From a virus (lineage: Duplodnaviria; Caudoviricetes), in the IMG/VR virus record IMGVR_UViG_3300029288_000097, positions 49,977 through 113,976 of that record: a DNA stretch of 64,000 nt; one strand, written 5' to 3'. The translations under genes were made by a program, and so were the position numbers. The notes below the pieces were generated by a model. That model was given only the letters and a program-made list of their open reading frames with translations. It ran no database searches and was not told the DNA's origin. Shown piece by piece: positions 403 through 63,137 of this stretch (the first letter of the stretch is position 1; each line of letters begins with the position of its first letter).

Positions 403-447
403 CAGGTATATATACCAGTTGCATTTGGTTAGCTAATCAATTATACT
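403..447 (+). promoter_or_regulatory. CTGGTA-N4-TACCAG-type box abutting a sigma70-type promoter
   Basis: CAGGTATATATACCAG (403-418), TTGCAT (419-424), 17 bp spacer, TATACT (442-447). Confidence 0.75.
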
Positions 448-487
448 CATAGTGTGAGTAACAAAACTTAGACGGGAGGCATCATAG

Positions 488-1510
488 ATGGCAGTAGAAA
501 CGACAATGAAAGGTAGAGTAAGTTCTCAATTCGTTCAGAAGGGGGACGTAGGTCATATCTATGGGGGAGTTGAGATCACTGGCAAAGTCACAGCTGAGGA
601 AGCTCTGGTTTTAGCTGGAGCCAACTTTGAAGTAGCACAATGTGCCGCTCGTATGGGCGATAGAGATAGAACCAAAATTGATAATCTGTTCCACAATTTC
701 AGAACGGATGTCTCCGGCCCCGAGAAATATCTTGGCACAGTCAAGGGTGATTACCATGTCATCCAGAATGAACGTGCATTTGCATGGATCGATGAATTGA
801 TTGGAGATCGTACAGCATGCACCATCACTTCTGCCGGTACACTTTATGGTGGACGATGTGTTTGGGTGTGCATTGATCTTGGTGGCTACGAGGTGCTTCC
901 TGATGATGAAGTCCGGCACCATTTGCTAATCGTCAATTCGCATGATGGCAGCTCCAATATGATCTTCCAGCTACTTGATAAGCGTGTAGTGTGCCAGAAT
1001 GTCATATCTGTAACTGGTGGCGTACACGGTTCAAGTGAACCACTGAAGATTCGACATACACGGCTGGCTGAAATCCGAATGGAAGATGTGCAGCAGGCTA
1101 TCGAGTTAGCCGATACACACTTCAAAGAGGCCGAGGAAGCTATGAAGCACATGGCCCGTGTGTCTATCGATGAAGATGAACAAGACTTGCTTATATATGC
1201 TGGCTTGGGCGTATCAAAGAAGCAACTACGAATGCTCAGCGCGGGTAAGTTTACCAAGTATCCTCAGTGGGTAAATCAGGCAACGTTGGTCAAGGCTGCT
1301 GTTTTACAGGGGCCGGGAGCTGAGTATGCACAGGGCACAGTATGGGGTGTGCTTAATGGCTTCACTTACTACTACGACCACATGAGACACGTCCGTAACT
1401 CCGATACGCGCCCGGATGTGGCAGTAGAGCAAAAGATTCTTCGCGGGAAAGGTGTTCGGGGTAAGAAGCTGGCATTTGAAGCTTGTTTGAGCTTCTGTAA
1501 CCGGAACTGA
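488..1510 (+). CDS. DUF932-family phage/plasmid protein
   Basis: Motifs YHVIQNERAF, SAGTLYGGRCVW, LLIVNSHDGSS, RVVCQN, IRHT, GTVWGVLNGFTYY; GGAGG RBS. Confidence 0.8.
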   Translation: MAVETTMKGRVSSQFVQKGDVGHIYGGVEITGKVTAEEALVLAGANFEVAQCAARMGDRDRTKIDNLFHNFRTDVSGPEKYLGTVKGDYHVIQNERAFAWIDELIGDRTACTITSAGTLYGGRCVWVCIDLGGYEVLPDDEVRHHLLIVNSHDGSSNMIFQLLDKRVVCQNVISVTGGVHGSSEPLKIRHTRLAEIRMEDVQQAIELADTHFKEAEEAMKHMARVSIDEDEQDLLIYAGLGVSKKQLRMLSAGKFTKYPQWVNQATLVKAAVLQGPGAEYAQGTVWGVLNGFTYYYDHMRHVRNSDTRPDVAVEQKILRGKGVRGKKLAFEACLSFCNRN

Positions 1511-1537
1511 CACAACTAAATAACGAAAAATATAGGT

Positions 1538-1572
1538 AAAACAGCTGTCAGACTACCTCTGGCAGCTGTTTT
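1538..1572 (+). terminator. bidirectional-type terminator hairpin
   Basis: AAAACAGCTGTCAGA-ctacc-TCTGGCAGCTGTTTT. Confidence 0.7.
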
Positions 1573-1671
1573 GCTATGTACTTTTTCCAAATAATTTTTT
1601 TGATAGGACACCCTATTCGCTTGCAAGTTTGTTAAGCTAGATTCAGCGACTCATAAAAGGAGCGATTTGCT

Positions 1672-11434: not shown

Positions 11435-11470
11435 TGAGAGCAGGTAATTGTACCAGATTACCTGCTCTCA
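11435..11470 (+). promoter_or_regulatory. 14-bp hairpin containing a CAGGTAATTGTACCAG box, just after a TTGAGT-18-TATACT promoter
   Basis: TGAGAGCAGGTAAT-tgtaccag-ATTACCTGCTCTCA; -10 at 11430-11435. Confidence 0.55.
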
Positions 11471-12346: not shown

Positions 12347-15300
12347 ATGCGCATACCAATTGAGATAGATTCATCTGCAGTATCTCCAGGATTACGGCAA
12401 GCCGAAAATCTTGTTGATAGTGCAATGGCTCGTATGCAAGCTCGAATCAATGCCGTCAAAGGCCCGTCCTTCGCTGGAGGAGCCGGAGGCGGTCTTGGTT
12501 TGGCTACTGATCTACGTCTGGCTAATAAAGAGGTCAGTGGCATTGCAAAAACGCTCACTGGTATGGGTAGCCTTACTACAGGACTTGGAATAGGTGCAGC
12601 AGTCGGTGGAGCTGCACTGCTTGAACAAAGTCTCGAACGATCTATCCGCAAGGCAAAAGAGTTTCAAACGGCTACATTGGCTATCGCGGCCACCATGGGT
12701 TCTATCGGCGAGTGGAAAAGTGGACCTGGTGGCAAAGCTCTAGCTCCTGTTCAGCAAAACCAACGTAATATGTGGGAAGCTGAAAAATACAGGATGAAAA
12801 TACTTGAGCGATCAGCCAAAAACATCCTCACATTTGAAGAACAGCTTAGTGCTTTCCAAGCAGGGCTTTCTTCAGGTGCTCGAAAAGGTTTGAATCCTGA
12901 CCAGATCATGAAGTTGACCGAGCAAACTGCCGTAGTTGCTAAAACTCTCGGTTTGCGCGGTGAGCAGATTGCAAACGCCTCACGTCTTATGATGGGTGGT
13001 GGTGTCAATATTGCACGTTCTACTATAGGACGAGCTTTAGGTATCACCAATGCAGATATTGCTACCCGACAAGGACCAGAACTTGCTAAGTTTCTTAACC
13101 AACGCATGAAGGGTTTTGAAGCGATGCAGGGACAGTTCGAGAACTCCATAGAAGGTTTAACCTCTACTCTGGAAGCTAAAATTGATGTACTAGCTTCCAG
13201 AGTTGGTGAAAAGTTCTTCAAGGGCATTGCACCTACAATGAAACAGATCGGGTTACTTGGTGAACCTGATCGTTCTGAGTATCGCTCTGATGCTGAATAT
13301 AAGAAAGCTGTAGCCAGCTATCAGAAGCAATCACAGACAATGGATAAAGTTGTCGGAGCTGCTGCTGAAGCATTCAATGGTCTTTTTGAGGGAGTAAAAG
13401 GTGTCGTAGAATCGGACACATTCCAGACTCTACTCGAAGTGCTTGTACAGATAGCCAAGGTATCGAAGACTATTATGCTGGCAGCTATTTTCAGCAAAAT
13501 AGCTGGTGCTGTCGGAGCTGCTACTGGTGCTCTTCAAAAGTTTCTAGCTATGGCCCGTAGTGTAGGCACTATAGGTGGTGGAGGTGGTGGAACAGGTGCC
13601 AGTGGCATCATGCCAGCCGACATCGTAGCCAGTGTCTTGACAGGTGGTGGTCGTGGAGCCAGAGGTGTTGGTGCCCAAGGTCTTGGAGCTGAATTAGGTT
13701 TAGCTGGTTTTAGTGGAGCATCTGCAGAAGATGTTGCACGGCGTTTTGGTGTAAACCCAGAGGCCAAATATGCCACTCGTATGCGCCAGGTTCGAGGTAT
13801 AGTTGGTGGTCGTTCTGCTATGGCTGAGGCAATGGTTATGGCTCTCGGCTATGGTGCTGCGGGTCTACCTCAAACTCAACGTTATGGTGCCAATTTCTCA
13901 GCTGAAGTAGAAAGACAGGCAAAAATTGCCGGTAAGCGTGACTACTACAGTATCAAAGGTGGTATACGTGGCCTAAGCGAAGAGGAAGCTGTTCTCTCGA
14001 ATAGATCACAATTTCTTGGTGGAACTGAACGCCAAGCTGCGATGGAACGATTAAATGCCATCAATATGGAAAAGATGGCTCTCGCGCAGCAAATGACAAT
14101 GATACCTTATGCCTCTCTTCCATTTGCAGGTAAGATGGGCCGTCGTTGGAGTGGATTCACTGGACATGCACAAGAAGCTCTTCCTATTGCTATGCTTGGC
14201 CTTATGGGTGGTCAGATGGCAAAAGACATCATTCCTGGCACAATAGGAGATGTCATAGGGAATGTTGTTCAGGGTGGCTCTCTCGGATATTTAGGTAAAG
14301 GTATCAGACCAGGTTTAACTACCAAAGGTGCTGTTGGAGCTGGTGTTGTTGCTGGTATTGGCTCAAGTCTTGTAGACTACTACCAAAAGAAGTCTATGGA
14401 AGACTTGAACAAAGGCACTACAGGTGGGCAATATGCAGGCATGGCTCTTGGCGGGGCTGCTAAGTGGGGTGCAGCTGGTTTTATGGTTGGTGGCCCTCTG
14501 GGAGCAGCTGCCGGAGCCATCGGTGGTGCTGTACTTGAGCCTCTTATCTCTTCTATGAAAAAAGCACAAGCTCAAGCTGAAGCTTCTGCTAAAGCTCTTG
14601 AAGAGATGTCTGCCAAGTTCCCACAGGCAGCTCAAATCACAAAAACCAGTCAACAAATACGTAATATAGATAGACAATTACAAACAGGCCGGAAACCAAG
14701 TACAGAACGTGATCCAAATTGGTTTGCACGTCAGTACTGGGCTTTATCTGGTTGGATGGGTGCACCTGTTAAAGTAACGGAACCCGGTCGAAAACTCACA
14801 GCAGAAGAACAGAAAGACTTAGCTGCTCGCCGTGATGCTCTAAAAACTCGCCGGGAGCAAGAACGTCAAGTTGCAATATTTGAAGGCGATCAGGGACTCA
14901 CTGAAGACCTGAATAGACGCAAAGCACAACTCGATCTCATTTCCCAGTATGGTGGAAAGAGTATCGATACTCAGATGCGCATTGCAAAGCTTCAAGCTGA
15001 GTATTCAGCAAAATCTCTGGAAAAAGACAAAGCTCAGATTCCAGTTGATTTCAATATGGAAGCATTCGGCAAGCGCATGAAAGACAAGAGTAATCCTCAA
15101 TATCAACAGTGGCAGAAGGAATACCAAAAGTGGCGACTCGGACGCACAGATGAAGAAATCAAAAATGGCAAAGCTGATTATGCTTCATTTATCTCATCCA
15201 AAGCTGACGAAGAAGTAAGGAAGCTGCAAGAAGCAGCCTTACCCGCTCTTAAAGCAGAAGTTCGTGCAGCAGGCGAAGCTACTGTTAAGTCACTACAGCT

Positions 15301-39718: not shown

Positions 39719-39724
39719 GTCCCT

Positions 39725-46765: not shown

Positions 46766-46794
46766 AAGTAAGAGGAATGACCACCAACCAAACA

Positions 46795-47617: not shown

Positions 47618-47905
47618 TTAGGCAAAACTGTATTTGACTGCTTCGGTGCGCATGCCGTCAAGCCAAGCACAAAACGACCGTTGAGCATCGGGTGTACGGA
47701 ACTTGAAGAGCTTCTGTCCATTTATTCGCCTTCCGTTATCCTCAAAACACTCTACTGACACCTTATGAGTCACAAAAGCTTCTGTACATCGCTTGTCACT
47801 CCATACTTCAATATGAACTGATGCACAAGCCTTGAAAGTATCAAGCCAAAAGCCCGAAGGCCGATCACTAAGCCCTACATAATCGAATGATGGTTCATTT
47901 ACCAT
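47618..47905 (-). CDS. cassette gene, hypothetical protein
   Basis: Third ORF of the 48316-47618 unit. Confidence 0.55.
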   Translation of the reverse strand: MVNEPSFDYVGLSDRPSGFWLDTFKACASVHIEVWSDKRCTEAFVTHKVSVECFEDNGRRINGQKLFKFRTPDAQRSFCAWLDGMRTEAVKYSFA

Positions 47906-48122
47906 CGATCAATACCCCCATATCCCGGAGAAGTGCTTCAAAGTCATGCAGGACTGCATCACGACTTCCGCGAAGATCAAACTCCCGCTTTATGATAGCG
48001 TAAGCCGATTCCCCGTGACTTCGGCGCATGCCCTTGCATTCAAGCTTCAGAGCACCTTTAAGCGACAATAAGCGATAAGCTTCTAACTTAGTAGGAGTAT
48101 CAGCGACAATAACCTTACCCAT
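47895..48122 (-). CDS. cassette gene, hypothetical protein
   Basis: LKGALKLECKGMRRS..SAYAIIKREF; second ORF of the unit. Confidence 0.65.
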   Translation of the reverse strand: MGKVIVADTPTKLEAYRLLSLKGALKLECKGMRRSHGESAYAIIKREFDLRGSRDAVLHDFEALLRDMGVLIDGK

Positions 48123-48124
48123 GA

Positions 48125-48316
48125 CTATGCCCCTTCCTCGAAGTCAAACTCTACCTTGCCCACGGTGTTACCATTTATATCACGTATTCCATGATAATAG
48201 GTATGGTCTTGGTTTGTCTCTATGTCCTCGGCTATCTTCCGAAGAATGCGGGCACATTCCGCATGGTCACTAACGGCATTCTCATTATTTACCTTGATTC
48301 TCAAATTAAACGGCAT
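48125..48316 (-). CDS. cassette gene, hypothetical protein
   Basis: CTTGGAGG RBS; ARILRKIAE..IRDINGNTVG motif; box 48381-48396 is 23 bp from TATACT. Confidence 0.75.
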   Translation of the reverse strand: MPFNLRIKVNNENAVSDHAECARILRKIAEDIETNQDHTYYHGIRDINGNTVGKVEFDFEEGA

Positions 48317-48451
48317 ACCAGTTACCTCCAAGCAACTTGATTGTATAACTAAGTATACCGCACATTTTAAGCCAAGTCACCTGTCAAAAATACCAGTATT
48401 TCAATACCCGGTAAATGTACCAGCTGGTACACATTTTCACGCACAAAAATA

Positions 48452-48625
48452 CGGGTAAGTTGATGGTTGCAACGTCCGCGAGCTGAACCTTCACCTGTTT
48501 TATATCCACATGGGACAGGTACTCAAGTGCTCCTTTCGGGCATCAACTTACCCGCGCCATATAGCACTATGCGCATAGTGACACATCTATATGGGTACTA
48601 CTCAATTCCCTGTGCTGGGAATCCT
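48452..48625 (-). ncRNA. candidate structured RNA at the 3' end of a cassette
   Basis: 14-bp perfect stem 48452-48465/48541-48554 enclosing ACCTGT/ACAGGT and a GAAA-loop hairpin; palindrome CACTATGCGCATAGTG 48565-48580; no ORF. Confidence 0.4.
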
Positions 48626-48631
48626 TACGAC

Positions 48632-48811
48632 TTACCCACCATACGCTTTATAGTGAGCGGGCTTTTTGCCGGAAGTCACATTATTGATACATGAAACAAG
48701 TTCGGCGCGATTCTCGCGTATAAACTGACTCTTGCTCATGTGCGAAGACTTCCACCAATTGTAAAGCCCTTCATCGTTGTCAATCCACTGTGCTATGTCT
48801 CTATTGCTCAT
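48632..48811 (-). CDS. 59-aa cassette gene (not in the ORF track)
   Basis: MSNRDIAQWIDNDEGLYNWW...; GGAG RBS; overlaps the upstream stop (ATGA). Confidence 0.65.
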   Translation of the reverse strand: MSNRDIAQWIDNDEGLYNWWKSSHMSKSQFIRENRAELVSCINNVTSGKKPAHYKAYGG

Positions 48812-48996
48812 GGTCTCACTCCATCAATGTATTGTTGAGCACATTCATGCTCGGAGAAACCTGCTTCAAAAGCGGGCATTAAGTAACTCTCTTCGATGTC
48901 CACATCGTCAAGATCAATGTCAACACCTTTTTCTTCTAATATCCTTTGAACTTCAATAGCATAAAAGTCAAAATCTTGGTGAACTCTACCACTCAT
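48808..48996 (-). CDS. acidic cassette gene, hypothetical protein
   Basis: GCTTGGAGGTAACGCATG leader identical to that at 49167-49184. Confidence 0.7.
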   Translation of the reverse strand: MSGRVHQDFDFYAIEVQRILEEKGVDIDLDDVDIEESYLMPAFEAGFSEHECAQQYIDGVRP

Positions 48997-49010
48997 GCGT
49001 TACCTCCAAG

Positions 49011-49169
49011 CTAATCTATTGCATGTTCAGGCAATCCCACTTCGTACTCATTCCCACAAGATGCACATGTAACTATCTGACTTGAGGGATATGCTATCAT
49101 CTTATTAAGTGTTTCACAATTCGGGCATTCCCACTCATAGCCGGATGCTATAATATCTACACTTTCCAT
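49011..49169 (-). CDS. 52-aa zinc-ribbon protein (not in the ORF track)
   Basis: MESVDIIASGYEWECPNC...CASCG; CTTGGAGG RBS; box 49232-49247 is 23 bp from TATACT. Confidence 0.7.
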   Translation of the reverse strand: MESVDIIASGYEWECPNCETLNKMIAYPSSQIVTCASCGNEYEVGLPEHAID

Positions 49170-49332
49170 GCGTTACCTCCAAGCAAATTGATTATATACT
49201 TAAGTATACAGCATAAAACGCGCCTTTTGAACTGGTAAAAATACCTGTTTATTTCACCCTGGTAAATGTACCAGCTGGTACACATTTTCACAAAGCCAAA
49301 ACCTGGTATTTCTACCAGGATCGGCATTCACC

Positions 49333-50187
49333 CTAATGATGAGCTGATATTGATATACGACTTTGCGGGTCTTTCATATCCGGGTCATAGTTTATCGCTA
49401 TGGCACCTGCGTACAACCATCTTGACGTATCCTGCAAATGCCAATTCCATGACACATCGGGCTTGAACTCTGGACTGTTGTCATTCACATTAAAGAATGC
49501 CGTTGACTGTCGGGCTTGATCCGACACCCGATCAAAACGACCAAAGCCGAAACCCAGTTTTGTTACAGGCACGTCTACCCATTCCTTATGATCTTCATTA
49601 TCGGCATCCTTAAGCTGTACCCGTTTTGACCTAAGCCGAAGATACCCAAGAATGGTATCACGTTCCCGGTTGTACCAATCTTGAAGCTTGAGCACATGAG
49701 GCTGTATTGTATTCCCGGTATGCTCATCATATACCCGGTACTCGAATGCTTCACGCATGTGCTCTGGTATTGAACCTCTAAGCTCATCAAACGATACCAT
49801 GAAACCATCGGCATTATTAAAGTCGGGTATAGGTTGAAAACCTGCCTTTTTTGCTTCATCATGAAGCATTATACCCGCCATATCACCCGAAACCGTATCA
49901 ACAGTAGTTAGTTCAATTCCGGGTTTGACAATAAAGAATACATTCCCTTGATTGTTTATGCCCGTGAAGTAAGACAAAGCCGACCACGGGTCATTTATAA
50001 AGCGATAGTAAGACGATGAGGTTATACTACCCCACTTTGTCACGACAATGACCGTAAGCACGCTCATAGAGTCCATAGACGGCCTGTCATACTCATTGAC
50101 AGACTGCGTTATACGTTCCCGTGCTTCCTCGTCAAATACCGTGCACTCATGCACAGCGTCTAAAAACATATCAGCAATACCTTTCAT
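49333..50187 (-). CDS. cassette gene, hypothetical protein
   Basis: CTTGGAGG RBS before ATG 50187; box 50246-50261. Confidence 0.75.
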   Translation of the reverse strand: MKGIADMFLDAVHECTVFDEEARERITQSVNEYDRPSMDSMSVLTVIVVTKWGSITSSSYYRFINDPWSALSYFTGINNQGNVFFIVKPGIELTTVDTVSGDMAGIMLHDEAKKAGFQPIPDFNNADGFMVSFDELRGSIPEHMREAFEYRVYDEHTGNTIQPHVLKLQDWYNRERDTILGYLRLRSKRVQLKDADNEDHKEWVDVPVTKLGFGFGRFDRVSDQARQSTAFFNVNDNSPEFKPDVSWNWHLQDTSRWLYAGAIAINYDPDMKDPQSRISISAHH

Positions 50188-50190
50188 GCC

Positions 50191-51032
50191 ATACCTCCAA
50201 GCTGAGTATATAATCAATTATCCCGCAAAAAGCACGCCAAGTCACCTGTCAAAAATACCAGTATTTCAATACCTGGTAATTGTACCAGCTGGTACACTTT
50301 AAGGATGAAACCACGACCTGGTAAATATACCAGGCCGCAGTCTTTAGAAGTCGAATGTTAATGTCAACTCATCGGGCTTTACATCGGGGAATGACTCTCG
50401 CAGCAAGTCCGATAAATGAGAATCACTATAACAGCCTTCAGCCGGATCATAGTCCATTATGGCATCAGCCACAAGCCCGCGTACAACCTCTTCATCTTCG
50501 GGCTTAGGATCATAACAACCATCTTCATCTAGTAGAATCTTAATACCCCGTTCTTCGGCCATTTTAGCGACTTCATACCTTGCCCATGCATCATAAGCAC
50601 TACATGCCTGCTCATACTCCCGGCTTGCCCAATCTTCTTCGTCAAGTACAGGATAGTCGTCAAGCTTGTCTATCAGCTCAAGCACTCTTTCCATGGTCTT
50701 GGTTGCTGTAACTCTAACCATGATATGCTCATACCATCCAACAGCCCAATGATTAGTACGCATAATCTGGACTGACTTACCGGATACCCGCCTAAGTTCC
50801 TTGTATGCAGCATCAAAGTTACTTTGTGCGAGCAAGTCAGAATCACGATGTTGACCGAACGGGGCAAAACCCCAAACGGTCAAGTCAAGATCACCCCAGT
50901 ACATAAAATCTTTTGGGCGTTTCAGCATACCCTCTTTTAACTCTGTAAGGTTCATGACCTATACCTCCAAGCTGAGTATATAATCAATTATCCCGCAAAA
51001 AGCACGCCATGTCACCTGTCAAAAATACCAGT
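50191..51032. repeat. 72-bp direct repeat (box, promoter, RBS) at 50191-50262 and 50961-51032
   Basis: Identical except one base; the two copies flank gene 50344-50955. Confidence 0.9.
50344..50955 (-). CDS. cassette gene, phage hypothetical protein
   Basis: RDSDLLAQSNF, HWAVGWYE, LDDYPVLDEED motifs; CTTGGAGG RBS. Confidence 0.8.
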   Translation of the reverse strand: MNLTELKEGMLKRPKDFMYWGDLDLTVWGFAPFGQHRDSDLLAQSNFDAAYKELRRVSGKSVQIMRTNHWAVGWYEHIMVRVTATKTMERVLELIDKLDDYPVLDEEDWASREYEQACSAYDAWARYEVAKMAEERGIKILLDEDGCYDPKPEDEEVVRGLVADAIMDYDPAEGCYSDSHLSDLLRESFPDVKPDELTLTFDF

Positions 51033-51148
51033 TTTTCCAGAGAGCAAAATGTGTACCAGCTGGTACAATTACCAGGTATGAGAAAACCCGGTAATTGTAC
51101 CAGGATTCTCTCTATGCCGCAGCCGCAGTCATGCCGCAGCCGCAGTCA

Positions 51149-51490
51149 CTATTCACCTATACCCCGTTCAATGGCTAATTCAGCTTCACCCTTGTTCCAG
51201 TCCTCTTCTACCCCACTGATAGCCCAATAATCATTGTAAATCATCATATAAGGCTTTCCACGAGTGATCTTAGCCGTACGTAAGTACTGTTGACATTTAT
51301 CTACCATATGCCCGTCTTTGTGCATACGTTTCTTGATAAGCCCAAGATTATACGGTTCCTTGTTCAGAATGCCCTTAAGCCAATACAGGAAACGGGATTC
51401 ACCCCGAGCAAGGTTTACCCCATAAAACTTCGGGTCACCCGGTTCCCTCTTAACCGTCAATCTATCCTCTGTTATTGTGATCTTAGGCAT
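51149..51490 (-). CDS. cassette gene, hypothetical protein
   Basis: Last of a 4-ORF unit; IKKRMHKDGHMVD motif. Confidence 0.7.
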   Translation of the reverse strand: MPKITITEDRLTVKREPGDPKFYGVNLARGESRFLYWLKGILNKEPYNLGLIKKRMHKDGHMVDKCQQYLRTAKITRGKPYMMIYNDYWAISGVEEDWNKGEAELAIERGIGE

Positions 51491-51491
51491 G

Positions 51492-51689
51492 TTACCCAGC
51501 CCTTTCATACAAGTGTGGTTTAGTCCGACAATCATAGACGTATTGACCAGACTTCACAGGCATGGCATTATCCCAGCCGTAAAGCTTCCTCATACCCGTA
51601 AGGTTCCCGTTTGGGCCAAAGTTCGGAAGGCCATGTAACTGTCGTGCAAACGGGTCTTTTGTTGACAGATAACGCATAGGGTACTTCAT
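51492..51689 (-). CDS. cassette gene, hypothetical protein
   Basis: Coupled ORF; PNFGPNGNLTGMRKLYGW. Confidence 0.6.
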   Translation of the reverse strand: MKYPMRYLSTKDPFARQLHGLPNFGPNGNLTGMRKLYGWDNAMPVKSGQYVYDCRTKPHLYERAG

Positions 51690-51973
51690 CTTGCACTTTC
51701 CGGTTTAGAACATCGGGGCAAAAAGAAGTCATACAAAACCGGTCCCATGCCCGTTCGGTTCATCTTATTCTGGATTCCCACAACATCATGGCAAAAATCA
51801 AATTGAGGGAATGACAATAGCCGTTCAAAGTCGAGTGGTATACCATTGCAATGAACCGCTTCCAAGTCCATTGTAAGGCTCAAAGAATCGTCAACAATAT
51901 TGTATTCCCATGCACGTGATACAATCTTCTGTATCAATTCATGCTCTTCACGAGTCGCGTTAAACTCCCACAT
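51686..51973 (-). CDS. DUF6874-like protein
   Basis: SLTMDLEAVHCNGIPLDFERLL.F..FDF.HDV.GI...MNR...FLPRC; GGAGG RBS. Confidence 0.7.
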   Translation of the reverse strand: MWEFNATREEHELIQKIVSRAWEYNIVDDSLSLTMDLEAVHCNGIPLDFERLLSFPQFDFCHDVVGIQNKMNRTGMGPVLYDFFLPRCSKPESAR

Positions 51974-52139
51974 ATTCCGATTCCTCCCGATAACGTATGC
52001 CGTACTTGGCAAGCAAGGCACGCGCTTCATCTTTAGTCATACCTCCCATGATCCTTGCCCCTGCATCACTCATGGCAAGAGTCCGTTTGGCTATCTTGAG
52101 TCGGTGTTTTTCAGGAGTGCTCAAATGACTTTTTCCCAT
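51960..52139 (-). CDS. cassette gene, small basic protein
   Basis: CTTGGAGG RBS before ATG 52139; box 52202-52217. Confidence 0.7.
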   Translation of the reverse strand: MGKSHLSTPEKHRLKIAKRTLAMSDAGARIMGGMTKDEARALLAKYGIRYREESEYVGV

Positions 52140-52312
52140 TGACTTCAACCTCCAAGTTGACCATATACTCAAGTATACAGCATAAACCAAGCCAATGTCA
52201 CCTGTAAAAAATACCAGTTTTCCATAGGCCGGAAACCTGGTAATTGTACCAGCTGGTACACTTTTTATGTGCAGAGAAAACCTGGTAATTGTACCAGGCT
52301 TCCTCGCTGCTG

Positions 52313-53011
52313 CTATCCGTTGGCAAGCCGCAGTTGTCCCGCAGCCTCTTGAGCTTTTGTCAATGCCGCAGCCGCATCACTTACTGCCTTCTCAGCTCTG
52401 CTTACCGCGCCTTCCTTCCAGCGTGGAGCTATACTTTCAGCCGCCGATTCTGCTTCCTGTTTACAAGCATCTATGCCATAAAAACCCCAGCAACTATCGG
52501 AAAGATCATCCATGTCATTCCCATTCTCATCCTTGATTATATAGCCGAATATCTCCCCGTTTGCCCATTGAGAATAGGTTTCCACTTCGGCATTCATACA
52601 CTTGCGGGCTTTTTCCCTTACCGTGCGCGTAGCACGCTTTTTACCCCATTCCTCTATCATTGTGCGATGTTCGCAAAGGATAAAGCCTACTCTTCCCCAA
52701 TCCCAGCCGTGTGAGTCGTATGCTGAAAACCCTGTGGTATTGTAAGCAACACCTGAATGCTCATAACGGAACACGGGAAGAATCTCACAGCCGGGATAGC
52801 ACGCCATGACAGCCTTGTCAAGTTCATCCCAGCCGGAATAGTCCTGCGTAGGAAAGAACGTACCGCCAAGCTCATTCACTCCTATGTGGTTTCTACCCTC
52901 ATAAATGACAAGCTTGCCTGCATTATCCCATTCCCTCGGAGATTCCCCACACTCATCGGGATGAATCTCTATTGTCAGTCCTGCATGTTCGTAAGTCTCA
53001 ATTGCTTCCAT
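52313..53011 (-). CDS. cassette gene, phage hypothetical protein
   Basis: SPREWDN, LPVFRYEHSG, GWDWGRVGF, DSCWGFYG motifs; CTTGGAGG RBS; box 53073-53088. Confidence 0.8.
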   Translation of the reverse strand: MEAIETYEHAGLTIEIHPDECGESPREWDNAGKLVIYEGRNHIGVNELGGTFFPTQDYSGWDELDKAVMACYPGCEILPVFRYEHSGVAYNTTGFSAYDSHGWDWGRVGFILCEHRTMIEEWGKKRATRTVREKARKCMNAEVETYSQWANGEIFGYIIKDENGNDMDDLSDSCWGFYGIDACKQEAESAAESIAPRWKEGAVSRAEKAVSDAAAALTKAQEAAGQLRLANG

Positions 53012-53144
53012 CGTATCCTCCAAGCAAGTTGATTGTATAACTAAGTATATCGCATAAATTGCGCCTTGTGACCTGCTAAAAATACCTGTTTTTTACCGGC
53101 CAAAAACCTGGTAATTGTACCAGCTGGTACACTTTTTGGCTGAA

Positions 53145-53188: not shown

Positions 53189-53449
53189 TTAGTGCTTTAT
53201 GTCAATTTTTGCCAATACAGCCTCAAGCCGGGTTTGGAACTCATCATGCTTGACCCGCTTGGTTTTGTCTGATTGCCAATAGTTCAAATGCTTGCCCGTG
53301 GTCGTGCTCCACACGTTTTCAGAGACCACTGTACCCTCACCCGGCGCGTAGAATCCCACACATGTTTCGTAGGAAAAGTACAGCTCAATTAGCCCTATGG
53401 TCACTTCATACTGAGTCGGTGAATTAACGTTCTTGAGTTTAACTTTCAT
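53189..53449 (-). CDS. phage hypothetical protein
   Basis: YFSYETCV, WSTTTGKHLN motifs; AGGAG RBS. Confidence 0.75.
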   Translation of the reverse strand: MKVKLKNVNSPTQYEVTIGLIELYFSYETCVGFYAPGEGTVVSENVWSTTTGKHLNYWQSDKTKRVKHDEFQTRLEAVLAKIDIKH

Positions 53450-54342
53450 GCTTGTCTCCTTCCTCTACTTGATTGTTTAACTAACACCCTACCTCTGTTA
53501 GTCGTCATGAGTAAACCCATGAAAATAAGATGGCTTTCCATCATCTCGATAATAGGTTTAGATTCTCGAAGTGCACTCGCTATGTTATTAAGGGATAACG
53601 GTCTATCAGCTTCGGCCAATAGATTCAGGTATGCCAAGTCTTTTTGGTCAAGGCCAAGTTCGTTAATACCCCGCATGTCAAAATACTCTTCAGACTTAAT
53701 GCCATAACGTTGTATTGATTCCCCATAACTGATAGCCAAACGGGGCACGCCTTTTGACCGTCTGGCTACATCATGTATAGTCTCATCTGATAACTTTGGA
53801 AAGTTACGTTTGATTATTTCCTCAATATCTTCTACAGGATAAGCCGTCAAGTGGAATTGTAAAGCTAACCGATCCCGTAAGGGTGCACTCATTTTTTCCG
53901 GGTTTGTAGTGCCAAAAAAGTAACATATATCAGGCAACCAATTGATTAAACCATCATCTGGTGAATAGGTATGACCATCCTCGATAGGACGAAGTAAAGC
54001 GTCAGAAGCACTTGCACTGAGGCCATGCGCTTCGTCTATCATGAGCAAGGTTTTCCGGGCATTCTTACCGGCTACACCCTTAGCATCATAGCCTTCGATG
54101 GATAATGACATAAGCAACTTGAATATGTCCGATTCATCCCAATTAGGCTGTGCCACACATTCCCTGAAGTCACAGTTTGGTATCTCACTTGCAAGGGCAC
54201 AAGCCAATGATGTTTTGCCTAAACCGGGGCCACCATATGCCAGAATTGATCTCGGGAAACCCGAAGCTAACTCCATCTCAAGCACTTTTTTCACGACCGA
54301 TTGACCGACATATTCATGCAAGCAAGTTGGACGTTTACTCAA
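53446..54342 (-). CDS. ruvB: RuvB-like AAA+ Holliday junction branch-migration ATPase
   Basis: RP..L.EYVGQ, Walker A GGPGLGKT, Walker B IDEAH, GTTN, PLRDR, RSKGVPRLA, C-terminal winged helix with T.RGR. Confidence 0.8.
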   Translation of the reverse strand: MSKRPTCLHEYVGQSVVKKVLEMELASGFPRSILAYGGPGLGKTSLACALASEIPNCDFRECVAQPNWDESDIFKLLMSLSIEGYDAKGVAGKNARKTLLMIDEAHGLSASASDALLRPIEDGHTYSPDDGLINWLPDICYFFGTTNPEKMSAPLRDRLALQFHLTAYPVEDIEEIIKRNFPKLSDETIHDVARRSKGVPRLAISYGESIQRYGIKSEEYFDMRGINELGLDQKDLAYLNLLAEADRPLSLNNIASALRESKPIIEMMESHLIFMGLLMTTNRGRVLVKQSSRGRRQA

Positions 54343-54421
54343 AATGTATCACCTGCCTTTCCCTCCCATGATGCCATGAAGCATGGTGCATGTCAACAGG
54401 TAAAAGTACGGGGATTCAAAA

Positions 54422-54486
54422 CCCTGGTAATTGTACCAGCTGGTACACATGAACACAATGTGTACCAGCTGGTACAATTACCAGGG
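54422..54486. repeat. perfect 29-bp inverted repeat with 7-nt loop (double palindrome)
   Basis: CCCTGGTAATTGTACCAGCTGGTACACAT-gaacaca-ATGTGTACCAGCTGGTACAATTACCAGGG. Confidence 0.95.
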
Positions 54487-54577
54487 TGCATGTTTCTATG
54501 GGTGTATGTTTATGTGAGGTTCGCAGCAGCCGCAGCTCTCATGACATGTCGCTCGCAGCCTATACCCACTCGCAGCT

Positions 54578-54922
54578 TCAGTCCTTACTCGTTTGGTTTC
54601 GACAGTCCTTACACACGTACTTGAATCCACTCGACTGAAACTTATCACGATGATAGTATTCATCTGTTAATGGTAAAAGCTCCTCGCAGCTCTTACATCG
54701 CCGCAGCTTAGTTCCATCAGGACGTGTCTCAGTGCGTTCGTTGGGTTCCCGCAGGATCACATCAGGTGATGTTGCTAAGATACGGCGTACCATGGTATAT
54801 GACATCTGCAAACCTTTAGCTATTGCTCGCAGCGAATAATGTTGCTCATCATAATAATGGATCACTGCAGCCCGCACTCTATCTTCATCCCACTTCGGGT
54901 ATTTGCCGGATTTAATTGCCAT
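54578..54922 (-). CDS. HTH plus C4 zinc-finger protein (candidate regulator)
   Basis: YSLRAIAKGLQMSYTMVRRIL helix-turn-helix; CKSC...CKDC; box 54958-54973 is 23 bp from TAGACT. Confidence 0.7.
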   Translation of the reverse strand: MAIKSGKYPKWDEDRVRAAVIHYYDEQHYSLRAIAKGLQMSYTMVRRILATSPDVILREPNERTETRPDGTKLRRCKSCEELLPLTDEYYHRDKFQSSGFKYVCKDCRNQTSKD

Positions 54923-54972
54923 ACCCCTAGTCTATCACAACGCTCGCAGCTATGCTACTGGTATAAATACGG

Positions 54973-55195
54973 GTTTTGGCCGTTTGATTCACAGTTTTGG
55001 CCGTTTGATTGGCTACTTGATTCACAGTTTTGGCCGTTTGATTGGCTACTTGATTCATGGGTTTTGGCCGTTTGATTCACGAAAAAATAGGGCATGCCAC
55101 GAAAAAGTGAATCAAGTAGCCAATCAAGTAGCCAATCAAGTAGCCAATCAAGTAGCCAATCAAACGGCCAAGAGCATAAATCATACGGCCAAAAC
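54973..55195. repeat. symmetric inverted iteron-like array (12-mer AATCAARYRGCC, 6 reverse and 6 forward copies); candidate origin or terminus
   Basis: GTTTTGGCCGTTTGATT at 54973, 54994, 55027, 55061; AATCAAGTAGCC x4 at 55110-55157; central GGCATGCC 55091-55098; extra copy at 55450. Confidence 0.9.
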
Positions 55196-55643
55196 GTAAA
55201 TTATGGCGTTCCCAGACCTATATAAAGTCGTACTAAGTCCACTTTGGCCCCCACGTTTATGGCCGTTTGAGAACTTGCATGTTCAAAATAACAAAAGTCC
55301 GTCTTTTGGCCCGCACGATTCCTAGAAAACTGTAAGTTTGGGCGTATTTGGCTAAAACCCACCCACCCCTATAATTACAGAGTCCGCAGCCTAGCATGTC
55401 GCTATAAACCATATAATTTGGCCCCATGATTCACCTATTTTGACCCATGAATCAAGTAGCCAAGAAATCTCCTTATATATAGACACTTTCACGTATAAAA
55501 GACGATACTTACACTTTTATATACCTTAACCCCACACAATCGTGCTCCCTTATACTACTATACTACTTTCTAAAGCAAATATACATATACATATACACCG
55601 CAGTTCTGTGATTATAATTCGCGCTCCGCACAGATTCATACTA

Positions 55644-55673
55644 TTGACGACACATGGGTTTTGATGCTATAAT
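55644..55673 (+). promoter_or_regulatory. sigma70-type promoter
   Basis: TTGACG-18-TATAAT with TG extension. Confidence 0.65.
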
Positions 55674-55710
55674 ACAGTGATTTTCAGATTTTCGCACACA
55701 AGGAGTGAAC

Positions 55711-56943
55711 ATGAAGCCTACTATTCGTTCTCAGCCGGGCATTACGCCTACAGATCATACCCCACTTGCGCTCGCAGCCGTTGCGATCACTCAACTGTAT
55801 CGAGAAGAGCAGGACTGGCGAGCAGTCTACTACAGCATGAAACGTACCGAGTTATTATCTGCAGCTGCTACGGGACAATTCCTACCGCAGCCTACCGACC
55901 TCCAACAAAAACTCAACGACTTAATTGGTGGGGTCAGTGAAGCACACCTATACCTTCCCCGTTACGAGCATGATGAACCGACGCACTACGTCTCCATCAT
56001 TCGTGACCCGGACACACAACTATGGCGACTACGCCACACCAAAGTAAGGGCCGTTGCCGACCGAAAGTCATTTGGTGCCATGATCTACTGGAAACAGATC
56101 ACACCGATACCCGATGTCTGTATTGAACTTACACCCGCGCTCACCCCTGTCATCAAGGGTGCCGGAGCCTATGATGCTTTTGTATCCGCAGTCACAGGCC
56201 ACGACCTTGCCACTCAGCAACAACTTTCGCATTCCATCATCGTATCCAAGCTTTTCGGGGCTACCACTACTCATCGTTCACCTATCTGGTTCTCGAATGC
56301 CAGAAACCAGTTCACTGAAAACTGCACACGGGTATCATTCCTCGTGGACGAGAATACAGACGGCTGGACTCTACCTTTCGCGTTTGGGGCTCCGGCCATC
56401 CGCAAGGGGCTACCATTCTCCACCAAAAAGAATGTCTCCATAATCCACACGGACAAGGGCATATTCCCCTTTACCTCAAAGCTCCTACCAGTAGAACCAC
56501 ATAAACTTGGCGACCTTTCCTTCGTTCTTGAGCAATTACTCATCGCAGCCAGACTCACACCATTCGTAGGTGTCACACTCGACGGCCAGACCGTTCAGCT
56601 CTACACCGCATTCTACTATCTCGACACCGAAACCCCCGAGATCGTCCAGATTGCTAAGGGCAGGCGCATGTCCAATTGTGAGAGCATCCCGGTCATCAAG
56701 CCCTGGCAGAACTACAATGGCTACTGGATACCGACACTGCCTCTCACGGCCATCCTACATTACTACACTCTCCTGGATGACCGGGCTGCACGTGTGATGC
56801 CATACTTCGGTGCATCCAAGATCACATCCTACAACAAAATCTTCGGGCGTTATGGCATGCCGCTCGCAGCAGAGGAACTTGAAAAATTAGACAGCAATAC
56901 CGGTATTATTACCAGTTCCAATATAGTTCAGCCCGAGGTATAA
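55711..56943 (+). CDS. hypothetical protein (about 410 aa) next to the repeat array
   Basis: AAGGAG RBS before ATG 55711; no recognised motif. Confidence 0.7.
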   Translation: MKPTIRSQPGITPTDHTPLALAAVAITQLYREEQDWRAVYYSMKRTELLSAAATGQFLPQPTDLQQKLNDLIGGVSEAHLYLPRYEHDEPTHYVSIIRDPDTQLWRLRHTKVRAVADRKSFGAMIYWKQITPIPDVCIELTPALTPVIKGAGAYDAFVSAVTGHDLATQQQLSHSIIVSKLFGATTTHRSPIWFSNARNQFTENCTRVSFLVDENTDGWTLPFAFGAPAIRKGLPFSTKKNVSIIHTDKGIFPFTSKLLPVEPHKLGDLSFVLEQLLIAARLTPFVGVTLDGQTVQLYTAFYYLDTETPEIVQIAKGRRMSNCESIPVIKPWQNYNGYWIPTLPLTAILHYYTLLDDRAARVMPYFGASKITSYNKIFGRYGMPLAAEELEKLDSNTGIITSSNIVQPEV

Positions 56944-56944
56944 T
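56900..56944 (+). promoter_or_regulatory. box plus promoter
   Basis: CCGGTATTATTACCAG (56900-56915), 23 bp, TATAAT (56939-56944). Confidence 0.75.
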
Positions 56945-56966: not shown

Positions 56967-57512
56967 TTGATGCTTAAGGATTTTATTGCAGAGATAGTAA
57001 ACAACAACTCGGATTTCATCAAGAGTCAGATACTACGTGGAGTGGAACTTATCTCCATAAACAAAGATCATGAACTTATACTTGATGAATATATGGATTC
57101 CGCTGAAGAGTTTGCCGGGACCACAATGGAACGGGAAGACACTCTCGAACAGATCATAGACTTCCTGTATTCCAGTGCTGTGTGCAAACGGTTGACCACA
57201 CTTATTGCGCCACAGGTCAAGCTTGCTTTTGAGGCACAAGGTGAGAATGGTGAAGCTTTGTCCTATGTTTTACAGGATGTAGCGGCACAATTGATGGTCA
57301 TGGGCTATACACGAGAAATCATCGAGCTAGTTACTGACCACAATCTCATTGATTATCTGGAAGTAGATGAGCGTGAATATGATGCCTACAGAATGCAGGT
57401 TTCCGTTTTCTTGAAGGCTGTGTATCTGCACAATGCACCAATTCCAACAGCTAAGCTCTACTTTGTTTTACCTACGCCTGAAAGCATCGATACTGATGGG
57501 TGGTGGGTATGA
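56967..57512 (+). CDS. acidic hypothetical protein
   Basis: AAGGAG RBS. Confidence 0.7.
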   Translation: MMLKDFIAEIVNNNSDFIKSQILRGVELISINKDHELILDEYMDSAEEFAGTTMEREDTLEQIIDFLYSSAVCKRLTTLIAPQVKLAFEAQGENGEALSYVLQDVAAQLMVMGYTREIIELVTDHNLIDYLEVDEREYDAYRMQVSVFLKAVYLHNAPIPTAKLYFVLPTPESIDTDGWWV

Positions 57513-60877: not shown

Positions 60878-61127
60878 TTGGGGTAGTTTTCCACGGTCAG
60901 ATGTTCTTAAATACATAGCCTGCCACGGTCAATCACGTGTAAGGGTCGTATGCTGTGAGTGTCAATGCGAGCAGGACTTTTACCTGTGGTCTATGGCCGG
61001 GCATGGAGTAGGAAAGTGCAAGGGCTGTGGTGTAGCGATCTCATATCATGGGTATCATACGGTGCCTGCTGACCTCTATAATGAGGTTCACAAAGATCGC
61101 AAGAAAAAAATCACTAAAACCACTTGA
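60843..61127 (+). CDS. zinc-finger protein
   Basis: CCEC ... CKGC. Confidence 0.5.
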   Translation: MPVSPFVVPVIDWGSFPRSDVLKYIACHGQSRVRVVCCECQCEQDFYLWSMAGHGVGKCKGCGVAISYHGYHTVPADLYNEVHKDRKKKITKTT

Positions 61128-61152
61128 CACGGTAGTGATATGGTGTTATGAT
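61124..61152 (+). promoter_or_regulatory. strong sigma70-type promoter of the Y RNA/Ro60 operon
   Basis: TTGACA-17-TATGAT; predicted +1 coincides with the first RNA stem (about 61158). Confidence 0.8.
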
Positions 61153-61157
61153 ATGTT

Positions 61158-61418: not shown

Positions 61419-61423
61419 TTATT

Positions 61424-61489
61424 TTTGCTGATGACCAGTGCAGAGCTACTTCGTGCATTTGAATACTCTGTTCAATTTAACTCAGCAAA
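61424..61489 (+). ncRNA. minimal Y-RNA-like module abutting the Ro60 RBS
   Basis: TTTGCTGA/TCAGCAAA and CAGAG/CTCTG stems with the same TGACCA and TACTTCG motifs as the two preceding RNAs. Confidence 0.6.
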
Positions 61490-61502
61490 GGATAGGAGAA
61501 AA

Positions 61503-62924
61503 ATGGCTAAGTTCAACACTGCACCTGTCGATAGGAGCAAAACCATCAACCGAGCTGGCGGTCCGGCTTATGCGAAGTCTACTAAGCTGGAACTTGTCAG
61601 CTTTTTGCTGACCTCATTTGTCAAGGATCAGTTCTACCGATCTGCGGATCAGGGATTGAAAGCCTTGACCAATCTGGTTGCAGACAATCCTCTGTTCGCA
61701 GCGAAGGCAGCGATCTATGCCCGGACTCAGTTCGGTATGCGTAGTGTATCGCATGCAGTTGCAGTCGATCTGATGGAGTTTGCAAAAGGCCATGCGTGGG
61801 CAAAGCGATTCTATGATCGCGTGATCTTTCGACCTGATGATATGACTGAGATTCGATCTCTGTATCAGACCAGGACCAAGAAGAATGGTTTGCCTCACGC
61901 AGTCAGCAAGGGCTTTGCTGCGGCCTTGACCAGGTTCGACGCTTATCAGCTTGGTAAGTATCGAGGTGAGGGCAAGGGCGTGTCTCTTGTAGACATCGTG
62001 AACTATGTTCACCCTCAGCATTCGGAAGCACTGCAGGCTCTTGTAAAAGATGAACTGCGGGCGACTGGCACCTGGGAGTCCAAGTTGACTCAGGCTGGGC
62101 AGCAGGGTAGTGATGAAGAGGAAGTCAAATCGCTCAAGCGTGATGCGTGGGCCGAGCTGATCTCTTCAAAGAAGTTGGGCTACTTTGCATTGCTGAGGAA
62201 CTTGCGAAACATCATCGAGCAGGCACCGGAGTGTGTAGACGCTGCATGTGCTATGCTTGTTGATGAGAAGCTGATTCGGAAGTCATTGGTTATGCCGTTC
62301 AGGTATCAGACTGCAGCTGATGAGATCAGGAAGTTGGGTGGTTCCAATACCCGTCCGGTTCTTAAGGCTCTGAATGAGGCCGTGGATAAGTCTGTAGCCA
62401 ATGTTCCGAGGTTTGATGGTCGAACTTTGATAGCGTTGGATGGAAGCGGATCGATGAGTGACGTTCTTGCAATCGCTACTCTGTTCGCCGCTGTGCTCTA
62501 TAAGTCTCAGGATGCAGACTGTATAATCTACAGTGATTCTGCGGAACAACATAGCTACACTGTCGAGGATTCGACTCTGACTATCGCTTCTCAGATGAGC
62601 AAGGACTGTCCTATGAGCAGCACTGATTTCAGTGCAGTATTCAGACTGATGACTGAGCCCTATGATCGGGTTATCTTTTTGTCTGACATGCAGTCCTGGG
62701 TAAATAGCCGGGGCATTCCGACTTACTTTAACAGGTATGTCGAGAAGATCGGTAAGAGACCGAAGCTATACTCTTGGGATTTGAGCGGGTATGGCACTCT
62801 GGAGTTCCCGGAGCGTGATGTTTACGCTCTGTCCGGCTTCTCAGAGAAGGTTTTTGATCTGATGAAGCTGCTCGAAACCGATAGAAATGCTATGGTGCAC
62901 GCTATTGAGGAAATAGAGCTGTGA
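61503..62924 (+). CDS. Ro60/Rsr-like TROVE-domain RNA-binding protein with C-terminal vWA domain
   Basis: NRAGGPAY, DQFY, YARTQFGMRS, FDAYQLGKY, TWE..L, MIDAS-like DGSGSM, ALLRNLRN, FLSDMQ, GFSEKVF; AGGAG RBS before ATG 61503. Confidence 0.92.
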   Translation: MAKFNTAPVDRSKTINRAGGPAYAKSTKLELVSFLLTSFVKDQFYRSADQGLKALTNLVADNPLFAAKAAIYARTQFGMRSVSHAVAVDLMEFAKGHAWAKRFYDRVIFRPDDMTEIRSLYQTRTKKNGLPHAVSKGFAAALTRFDAYQLGKYRGEGKGVSLVDIVNYVHPQHSEALQALVKDELRATGTWESKLTQAGQQGSDEEEVKSLKRDAWAELISSKKLGYFALLRNLRNIIEQAPECVDAACAMLVDEKLIRKSLVMPFRYQTAADEIRKLGGSNTRPVLKALNEAVDKSVANVPRFDGRTLIALDGSGSMSDVLAIATLFAAVLYKSQDADCIIYSDSAEQHSYTVEDSTLTIASQMSKDCPMSSTDFSAVFRLMTEPYDRVIFLSDMQSWVNSRGIPTYFNRYVEKIGKRPKLYSWDLSGYGTLEFPERDVYALSGFSEKVFDLMKLLETDRNAMVHAIEEIEL

Positions 62925-63091
62925 GCAACCATAAAAACAACAAGGCCGTCGAGGAAGACACACGCTTGACGGCCTATGTTCCACCCCAAGACTACCGTAA
63001 ACTCCGCATAAGCCTAATCAAGCACGGCATGAGTGTATCTGAGTGGGCACGACAGATGATCCACAGATGGTTTCAAGAGCACGATGAATAA
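62921..63091 (+). CDS. 56-aa ribbon-helix-helix-like protein (not in the ORF track)
   Basis: RLTAYV-PPQDYRKLRISLIKHG-MSVSEWARQMIHRW; GTGA overlap with the Ro60 stop; GAGG RBS. Confidence 0.55.
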   Translation: MSNHKNNKAVEEDTRLTAYVPPQDYRKLRISLIKHGMSVSEWARQMIHRWFQEHDE

Positions 63092-63137
63092 CTGGTATTT
63101 TTGCCAGTTGTTTTTTGCCTCTAGGCTGAGCTATACT
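63092..63137 (+). promoter_or_regulatory. box plus promoter
   Basis: CTGGTATTTTTGCCAG (63092-63107), 24 bp, TATACT (63132-63137). Confidence 0.7.

Follow-up and report, generated by a model that had tools for sequence, protein, structure and literature searches.

A conserved palindromic box at a fixed distance from the -10 hexamer defines a promoter-operator regulon in an uncultured phage clade

A 16-bp palindromic box, CTGGTA-N4-TACCAG, stands at a fixed distance upstream of sigma70-type -10 hexamers in the 113,976-bp IMG/VR phage record G000, which is rated complete. We studied it in the last 64 kb of that record (bases 49,977-113,976, hereafter the window, to which positions refer unless the genome is named) and in related phages. 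The boxes make up a promoter-operator regulon that is real and conserved within an uncultured phage clade, and very likely the box switches early and DNA-metabolism genes on or off together. The window contains 14 exact copies of the box (0.00 in 100 shuffles), and 38 copies were found when up to two mismatches were allowed (2.34 +/- 1.33 in shuffles). Under the same threshold the whole G000 record holds 46 boxes, 38 of them intergenic, and a -10-like hexamer lies exactly 22-24 nt from 20 of the 46, where 0.43 would be expected per distance bin.

The original prediction, made from the window alone, had listed 15 boxes with their distances to the -10 hexamer. All 15 were recovered at their coordinates and every spacing was correct, twelve being 23 bp and three one base off (Table 1), with the correction that the boxes at 39674, 54397 and 54958 are degenerate and match 9-10 of 12 positions. 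The -10 hexamers at these boxes are TATACT, TATAAT, GATAAT, CATAAT, CATCAT or TAGACT. When the whole phage record was scanned, as had been proposed, the regulon proved larger, with about 22 box promoters, eight of which lie upstream of the window before DNA-metabolism genes. Eleven of the 15 window promoters fire on the minus strand, and the block of leftward genes at 45.4-55.1 kb (hereafter the array) has a negative GC skew, in agreement with its minus-strand box promoters. About 20 further window boxes are not promoter-proximal and form the distal boxes of the array. The proposal that one regulon joins the array, the DUF932 gene, an "RlpA-like" gene and two rightward operons was upheld in that the array, two rightward units, the gene at 39725 and the DUF932 gene share a single promoter class; the RlpA-like label was not confirmed by Pfam.

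Relatives were located by a TerL search of viral contigs, and boxes were present in all five records tested. The complete, 106-kb genome G001 (TerL 67% identity), which is syntenic with G000, contains about 17-19 box promoters with a spacing of 23-25 bp, and the 92.6-kb relative G006 contains 19, with 18 hexamer matches at exactly 23-24 nt. The core conserved over the phages is C-N2-GTA-N4-TAC-N2-G with an A-tract in front. At orthologous promoters, the box and a GCTGAGS-TATAMT block were kept and the -35 and the spacer had diverged, as seen at the 39725 gene and at the SSB, DinG, Gam-like and beta-helix genes. The register of 23-24 bp also holds at 12 unique non-array promoters with unrelated flanks, and at about 60 promoters in the three phages the box stays clear of the -35, the -10 and the start site and keeps to one helical register. 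No boxes were found in two distant TerL relatives, G007 and G008 (32% identity). A cultured-phage collection gave no match to these phages by DNA or capsid, a search of IMG/VR with the compound motif returned no match, and a literature search for the box motif matched only primer sequences.

For the promoter anatomy, the -10 hexamer was set at -12 to -7 and the spacer at 17 bp, with start sites assumed. On this scale the box spans -51 to -36 with its centre at -43.5, and the A-tract occupies -55 to -52. The class thus reads A-tract, dyad C-N2-GTA-(T-rich N4)-TAC-N2-G, weakly conserved -35, 17-bp spacer and TATAMT -10. A dyad near -42 to -44 adjoining the -35 had been foreseen, and it is kept in three phages, abutting the -35 without overlap. 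Information content was measured over 19 promoters outside the array, taken from G000 and G001 and unrelated in their flanks, and amounted to 1.49 bit/position for the -10 hexamer, 1.32 for the box half-sites, 0.89 for the A-tract and 0.38 for the -35 region. Hence the box, rather than the -35, is the conserved upstream element (1.32 versus 0.38 bit/position). The description of the -35 as mostly non-consensus was right as to its poor conservation, but the element is not absent, since matches of 3-5/6 to TTGACA are usual; the -10 matches at 5-6/6 and the spacer is 17 bp. Boxless promoters of the same phages carry consensus -35 hexamers. Two near-consensus examples lie in the window (Table 1), the G001 ortholog of the promoter before the 410-aa gene is boxless with TTGACA-17-TATACT, and the DUF932 promoter of G001 has TTGACA together with a box reduced to a displaced remnant.

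This architecture suggests that a DNA-binding protein, sequence-specific and probably dimeric, docks on the box, and that the box marks a phage-specific class of sigma70-type promoters. The bound protein would stand directly upstream of sigma region 4 and beside the RNA polymerase alpha subunit's C-terminal domain (alpha-CTD), where it could recruit or stabilise the host RNA polymerase. Recruitment by a bound dimer is favoured because the register is fixed and non-overlapping, the -35 is weak, an A-tract adjoins the box and a consensus -35 appears where the box is missing. Such a protein would switch on early cassettes and DNA-metabolism operons together, and structural genes would use boxless extended -10 promoters. 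That an activator of some origin reads the box seems to us on balance probable; that the phage itself encodes it, probably as the protein P0001 discussed below, is a more tentative proposal, to which we give a little less than an even chance.

At the promoters the dyad behaves as DNA. Stem-breaking variants such as CAGGTA...TACCAG and CTGGTA...TGACAG are frequent and uncompensated, and the stem is mismatched in 14 of 22 proximal boxes, which fold with only 0 to -5 kcal/mol. Among 51 proximal boxes of the three phages, 224 complementary pairs were counted against 217 +/- 3.5 in shuffles, pair 3/14 alone being slightly raised, and no Rfam family matches the box. Because the variants lack compensation, the proximal box is a DNA site and not an RNA hairpin. 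A role of the box solely as hairpin or terminator was thus ruled out for proximal boxes by weak folding and missing covariation, and was kept for the distal ones.

Every intergenic region of the array holds a promoter and a hairpin with a U-tract, and includes one to three further boxes whose polarity is opposite to that of the proximal box. Past the stop codon of most array genes, the first of these boxes forms a GC-extended stem followed by a U-tract (-9 to -16 kcal/mol); the hairpin at 49303-49318, for instance, directly follows the stop of the minus-strand gene 49333-50187. Terminator copies in G006 show the compensated variant CCGGTA...TACCGG. The distal boxes are best read as intrinsic terminators, and the array would then reuse the palindrome in opposite polarity, with extended stem and U-tract, to end each cassette; the inverted repeat at 54424-54484 has the make-up of a strong terminator behind the gene of P0001. 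A palindrome of 14-16 bp lies between terminator and promoter, GTACCAGCTGGTAC in G000 and GTACTAGCTAGTAC in G001, G006 and the further relative L035. Cassette genes mostly differ among G000, G001 and G006, and the intergenic layout is kept.

These observations would also suit a reading without any dedicated regulator, in which the palindrome is the terminator or insulator stem of PeSL-like cassettes and stays near promoters through recombination or duplication. The distal stems of 7-10 bp with U-tracts, one perfect hairpin of about 30 bp, the compensated G006 variant and the exchange of genes within a constant layout speak for such a reading. It fits poorly with the mismatched, weakly folding proximal boxes, with a specific sequence that is conserved beyond pairing in phages of about 50% protein identity, and with the register held at the 12 unique non-array promoters; moreover, PeSL stem-loops vary in sequence and position (PMC2839356). 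We consider it very unlikely.

P0001, encoded at the head of the array beside an iteron region in G000, G001 and G006, is the best candidate for the protein that reads the box. In its AlphaFold2 model (pLDDT 93), residues 1-60 align with the DNA-binding domains of LsrR, SorC and DeoR and with sigma region 4 (Z 7.3 to 5.6), modest matches that indicate a fold class only. A profile search returned 460 relatives, of which about 15 are full-length (about 110 aa) and many others repeat the Stc1-like ribbon. The gene is present as a single copy in each of the box-bearing phages G000, G001 and G006 and is missing from the boxless G007 and G008, and its own promoter carries a box in all three; in L035, only the neighbouring RuvB-like gene was seen among the genes of this locus. 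In G000 and G001 the P0001 ATG stands 6 nt past the -10 (window 54920-54934), so that the gene is apparently leaderless, and P0001 may regulate itself from a weak box promoter on such an mRNA. The 39725 gene is arranged alike, with its ATG only 6 nt past the -10 (window 39713-39727) and the layout conserved in G001, and the G006 homolog of the leaderless genes (39725 gene/P0001) has a leader with a Shine-Dalgarno sequence. P0001 was absent from the cultured-phage collection. A distant homolog in the Stenotrophomonas phages BUCTxx99 and ANB28 occurs in another context without dyad enrichment.

A second candidate is a 244-aa protein with an N-terminal helix-turn-helix (HTH) domain, encoded in the tail module of the late region. 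Its C-terminal domain is beta-rich with weak sliding-clamp-like matches (Z about 5), and at least 25 homolog clusters, all unannotated, occur on contigs of about 100-115 kb. Searches of the phages for GntR, XRE, Mor, sigma70 region 2, CRP-type HTH, S24 and integrase proteins found none. HTH_Crp_2 gave no match above threshold in the three phages, Peptidase_S24 none in G000, G001 and G006, and a six-frame search with PF08765 (Mor/C) gave no match in G000 and only a sub-threshold one of 15.5 bits in G001.

Several other candidates were rejected. The RuvB-like AAA+ protein has no homolog in G001, which keeps its boxes; the open reading frame 62921-63091, which resembles a ribbon-helix-helix protein, is not conserved in G001 or G006; and the 63-aa, 52-aa and 203-aa array proteins were not found in G006. 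No family was found for the poorly conserved 410-aa protein, which is more likely an initiator because of this poor conservation and because it adjoins iterons that differ between phages. The iteron-rich, origin-like region itself (55059-55710) lies between the divergent P0001 and 410-aa genes; in G001, L034 and L038 the iterons are wholly different and the adjoining box is kept. A LexA box was dismissed for lack of an S24 domain and for its sequence, as CTGT and ACAG do not occur together in any of the 38 window boxes and consensus positions 4 and 13 are G and C, unlike LexA CTGT-N8-ACAG. A temperate global repressor of the P1 C1 type was likewise dismissed, with no integrase, S24 or XRE HTH found.

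Activation by P0001 has to be weighed against a number of contrary points. Part of the motif's abundance is not regulatory, because the distal boxes behave as RNA terminators. The identity of P0001 among box-sharing phages is just 31-49%, while the 244-aa protein reaches 63% in G006 and 47% in G001 and has the same distribution as the boxes, and the co-occurrence of P0001 and box concerns five related genomes only, with phylogeny as a confounder. Start-up must rest on basal transcription if the activator is needed at nearly all early and middle promoters, that of the candidate included. Since the core elements are decent, the promoters might even fire unaided, which would suit a repressor. The box would in that case serve a phage repressor as its operator, and early and middle transcription would be shut off after the promoters have fired unaided on infection: P0001, by negative autoregulation, or the 244-aa protein would block contacts of alpha-CTD or sigma region 4 or over-stabilise the RNA polymerase, and late promoters would stay active. 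The distribution of the boxes would suit an autoregulated repressor, with all early and middle promoters boxed, the candidate's own among them, and the late and initiator-gene promoters boxless. The serviceable core elements, the two to four boxes in each array intergenic region and the late-region position of the better conserved 244-aa HTH protein point the same way. A box that overlaps neither -35, -10 nor start site at about 60 promoters and stays in one register is, however, unusual for steric repressors; the barely conserved -35 (0.38 bit/position) makes unaided strength doubtful, and neither a CI/LexA-type S24 domain nor an XRE HTH nor an integrase was found. We regard a repressor as unlikely.

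The activator may also belong to the host. The box would then copy the site of a host transcription factor that is recruited at infection, and P0001 would be otherwise employed, for example at the iteron origin. A host factor would solve the start-up problem, and no GntR, CRP, Mor or XRE protein was found in the phages; the TGGTA/TACCA half-site resembles GntR-family operators. Cyanobacterial yfr2 genes offer a precedent: a GntR-family regulator of the host binds there to a dyad (CGRE1) that begins 55-57 nt upstream of the start site (PMC6191309). CGRE1 differs from the box in motif and belongs to another host group, and no host site is known for the box. No known regulator with such a site could be named, and the box is not a LexA, CRP or FNR site; the phages do encode conserved HTH proteins, one of them with a box at its own promoter. 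A host origin of the reader appears distinctly unlikely.

The array promoters contain a second element. The motif tGGCaCG-nTTT-kTGC occupies the -35/-10 spacer of all 24 array promoters in the three phages, with GG-N10-GC invariant, and ends 1-3 nt before the -10; compared with TGGCACG-N4-TTGCW, one copy matches at 12/12 and nine copies at 11/12 positions. It fits the sigma54 -24/-12 consensus and partly also a GCAC-N5-GTGC dyad, and may be an operator for early shut-off or the seat of a sigma54 holoenzyme. Taken as promoters in their own right, the GG-N10-GC elements would be the real array promoters and the array boxes an enhancer (upstream activating sequence, UAS) for a host AAA+ sigma54 activator, which would agree with the invariant GG and TGC in 24/24 array promoters and with distal boxes about 60-140 bp upstream of the elements. 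Yet a conserved sigma70-type TATAMT, which sigma54 promoters do not need, follows 1-3 nt past the element, the 12 non-array box promoters lack the element, and no Sigma54_activat domain was found in the three phages. The proximal box is also too near for a looping activator, and the element could be the spacer operator GCAC-N5-GTGC instead. We hold sigma54-dependent array promoters to be most improbable.

The structural module of G000 and G001 uses boxless promoters with a TGcTATAMT extended -10, so the box marks non-structural promoters and three classes can be distinguished. If our reading is right, box plus spacer element would serve the early cassettes, box plus GCTGAGS the DNA-metabolism genes and boxless TGcTATAMT the late genes. 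TGCTATA(A/C/T)T extended -10 sites occur at window 4906, 11427, 17519, 20525, 37824 and 39710, and G001 has the class at orthologous places; the boxless sites are probably late promoters. Just downstream of one late-type -10, a box-like 16-mer (11441-11456) lies inside a hairpin with a 13-bp stem (11436-11469), in the interval from the best conserved tail gene to the next, and the G001 counterpart is a 14-bp-stem hairpin that holds a box. A bolder and, as a whole, unlikely scheme would join these elements: a hitherto undescribed family of small phage transcription factors (about 110 aa, sigma-region-4/SorC-like HTH plus Stc1-type ribbon) would act in the manner of Mor from -43.5 at about 20 promoters per genome, its operator would double as terminator stem and recombination seam of mobile cassettes, and the sigma54-type spacer element would gate the early cassettes, either with the sigma54 holoenzyme of the host as a brake or through a second repressor.

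The coordinates of the promoters, distal boxes and candidate genes are collected in Table 1. Repeats of CGCAGC(C), which read GCTGCGG on the coding strand, form clusters at 46683-46770, 51104-51148 and 54485-54577 that sit between an array-gene stop codon and the terminator box, and GCTGCGG/GCAGCGG runs lie likewise behind array genes in G001, L035 and L038; as a guess, they are Chi-like or RNA-processing sites. The array -10 is embedded in a palindrome of 14-16 bp, TATACTTAAGTATA or its variant GATAATTGATTATA (e.g. 49196-49211), similarly in G001 and G006, which yields a second -10-like hexamer 10 bp downstream and another on the opposite strand. At the end of the array, 45160-45392 combines two TATAAT hexamers with three degenerate boxes and a GC-rich, bidirectional terminator (45170-45190), and a short non-coding transcript might arise from it. 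Genome 12557-13318, which is outside the window, encodes a DNA methyltransferase of the MT-A70 family that is 62% conserved in G001. The G000 record is 91% coding, a repeat of about 150 bases, not exact, was spotted by eye at its ends, and its genes for nucleotide metabolism, polymerase and tRNAs suggest a virulent lifestyle.

Table 1. Box promoters, boxless promoters, distal boxes and candidate reader genes in the window (spacing, distance from box to -10 hexamer)
Positions	Strand	Feature	Box start	Spacing (bp)
403-447	+	Promoter of DUF932 gene (488-1510; Pfam); box 403-418, -35 TTGCAT, -10 TATACT (442-447)	403	23
39674-39718	+	Degenerate box (9/12), GTGTCT, TGcTATACT (-10 at 39713-39718); gene ATG 39725	39674	23
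45935-45979	-	Perfect box (45964-45979), -10 CATAAT; gene 45393-45902	45964	23
46533-46576	-	Box promoter; gene 46181-46489	46561	22
47388-47432	-	Array promoter; perfect box, TTCAAA, TATACT; gene 46795-47352	47417	23
48352-48396	-	Array promoter; GTGACT, TATACT; genes 47618-48316	48381	23
49203-49247	-	Array promoter; TTCAAA, TATACT; genes 48632-49169	49232	23
50217-50261	-	Array promoter; GTGACT, GATAAT; gene 49333-50187	50246	23
50987-51031	-	Array promoter; GTGACA, GATAAT; gene 50344-50955	51016	23
52172-52217	-	Array promoter; GTGACA, TATACT; genes 51149-52139 including DUF6874 gene	52202	24
53044-53088	-	Array promoter; GTCACA, TATACT; gene 52313-53011	53073	23
54368-54412	-	Degenerate box, TTGACA-17-CATCAT; RuvB-like AAA+ gene 53446-54342	54397	23
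54929-54973	-	Degenerate box, TAGCAT, TAGACT; HTH-zinc-ribbon gene P0001	54958	23
56900-56944	+	Box promoter; TTCCAA, TATAAT; gene 56970-57512 and rightward operon	56900	23
63092-63137	+	Box promoter; TTGTTT, TATACT; gene 63171-63542	63092	24
55644-55673	+	Boxless near-consensus promoter TTGACG-18-TGcTATAAT; 410-aa gene adjoining iterons		
61124-61152	+	Boxless near-consensus promoter TTGACA-17-TATGAT; before tRNA-like RNAs and Ro60 (TROVE) gene		
47395-53066	-	Seven spacer-element copies (tGGCnnG-nTTT-kTGC), first bases 47410, 48374, 49225, 50239, 51009, 52194, 53066		
46596-46682	-	Distal boxes and head-to-head compound palindrome at cassette junction; U-tract after first hairpin		
47485-47560	-	Distal boxes with compound palindrome TGTACCAGCTGGTACA		
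48408-48431	-	Distal box and third half-site		
49259-49318	-	Distal boxes; 49303-49318 a 7-bp stem with UUUU, -10.6 kcal/mol, terminator-like		
50273-50333	-	Distal boxes; 50318-50333 an extended stem, -16.3 kcal/mol		
51052-51103	-	Distal boxes; 51088-51103 a hairpin with U-tract		
52237-52297	-	Distal boxes; 52282-52297 an extended stem with U-tract, -12.4 kcal/mol		
53108-53131	-	Distal box and third half-site, then U-tract		
54424-54484	-	Perfect long inverted repeat, arms of about 29-30 bp, two compound elements, then GGGUUUUG		
54578-54922	-	P0001, best candidate reader; 114 aa, N-terminal three-helix HTH and C-terminal Stc1-like CxxC...CxxC zinc ribbon		
18507-19241	+	Second candidate reader; 244-aa late-region (tail module) protein, N-terminal HTH		

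If activation through the box is correct, one DNA word programmes most non-structural transcription of a clade of environmental phages of about 90-115 kb, and the temporal programme of uncultured phages could be read from sequence as three promoter classes. P0001 and the 16-bp box form a concrete, testable protein-DNA pair. An operator that doubles as terminator stem and cassette seam would tie regulation to modular gene shuffling.

The array resembles the PeSL cassettes of T4-type phages, which are units of promoter and stem-loop (PMC2839356, PMC4122927). As in those, small, fast-changing genes are separated by composite units of about 100-170 bp, and the gene content is shuffled while the units are kept. 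PeSL stem-loops, however, are variable and take five positions relative to the promoter, whereas the array has one dyad in one register, found outside the array as well; composite units were thus found here, and stem-loops of variable sequence and position were not. The T4 MotA box offers another parallel as a phage element that replaces a good -35 and sets a temporal class on the host sigma70 RNA polymerase. It is asymmetric, 9 bp long, centred at -30 and dependent on AsiA, in contrast to the dyad at -43.5, and among the proteins scanned no homolog of MotA or AsiA was noticed; PMC4122927 mentions the Mot box.

With class II activator sites (CRP and FNR at -41.5; lambda cI at OR2 for PRM) the box shares a dimer-type site next to a sub-optimal -35, and with FNR sites the 5-N4-5 core spacing. 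The lambda cI transcript from PRM is leaderless and self-controlled, as that of P0001 appears to be. Assignment to the CRP/FNR class II type did not hold: the centre is -43.5 instead of -41.5, the box abuts the -35 without overlapping it, and its sequence is unrelated to the CRP, FNR and cI operators, being neither TGTGA-N6-TCACA (CRP) nor TTGAT-N4-ATCAA (FNR). A CRP-family reader supplied by the host is nevertheless conceivable.

In geometry the box comes close to the Mu promoter Pm, where a 16-bp Mor dyad is centred at -43.5 and an alpha-CTD subsite lies at -57 to -52 (PMC4390567). A 16-bp dyad centred at -43.5 relative to a sigma70 -10, with the start site assumed, was found here too, and both systems have an A/T-rich tract directly upstream, a weakly specified -35 and a phage temporal class defined by the site. 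They differ in that Mor and C act at 1-4 promoters, against about 20 per genome here, and no Mor/C protein was found in G000. Unlike in the Mor system, box promoters often keep a TTG or GTGACA -35-like hexamer, the dyad is reused as terminator stem, and the candidate reader combines an N-terminal HTH with a zinc ribbon. In its apparent action the site is most like a Mor/Pm or class II activator site, yet it is a member of neither family. If true, activation from -43.5 would have been solved independently here, with the geometry of Mor but no Mor homolog, and the system would offer a promoter/regulator module that is compact and orthogonal.

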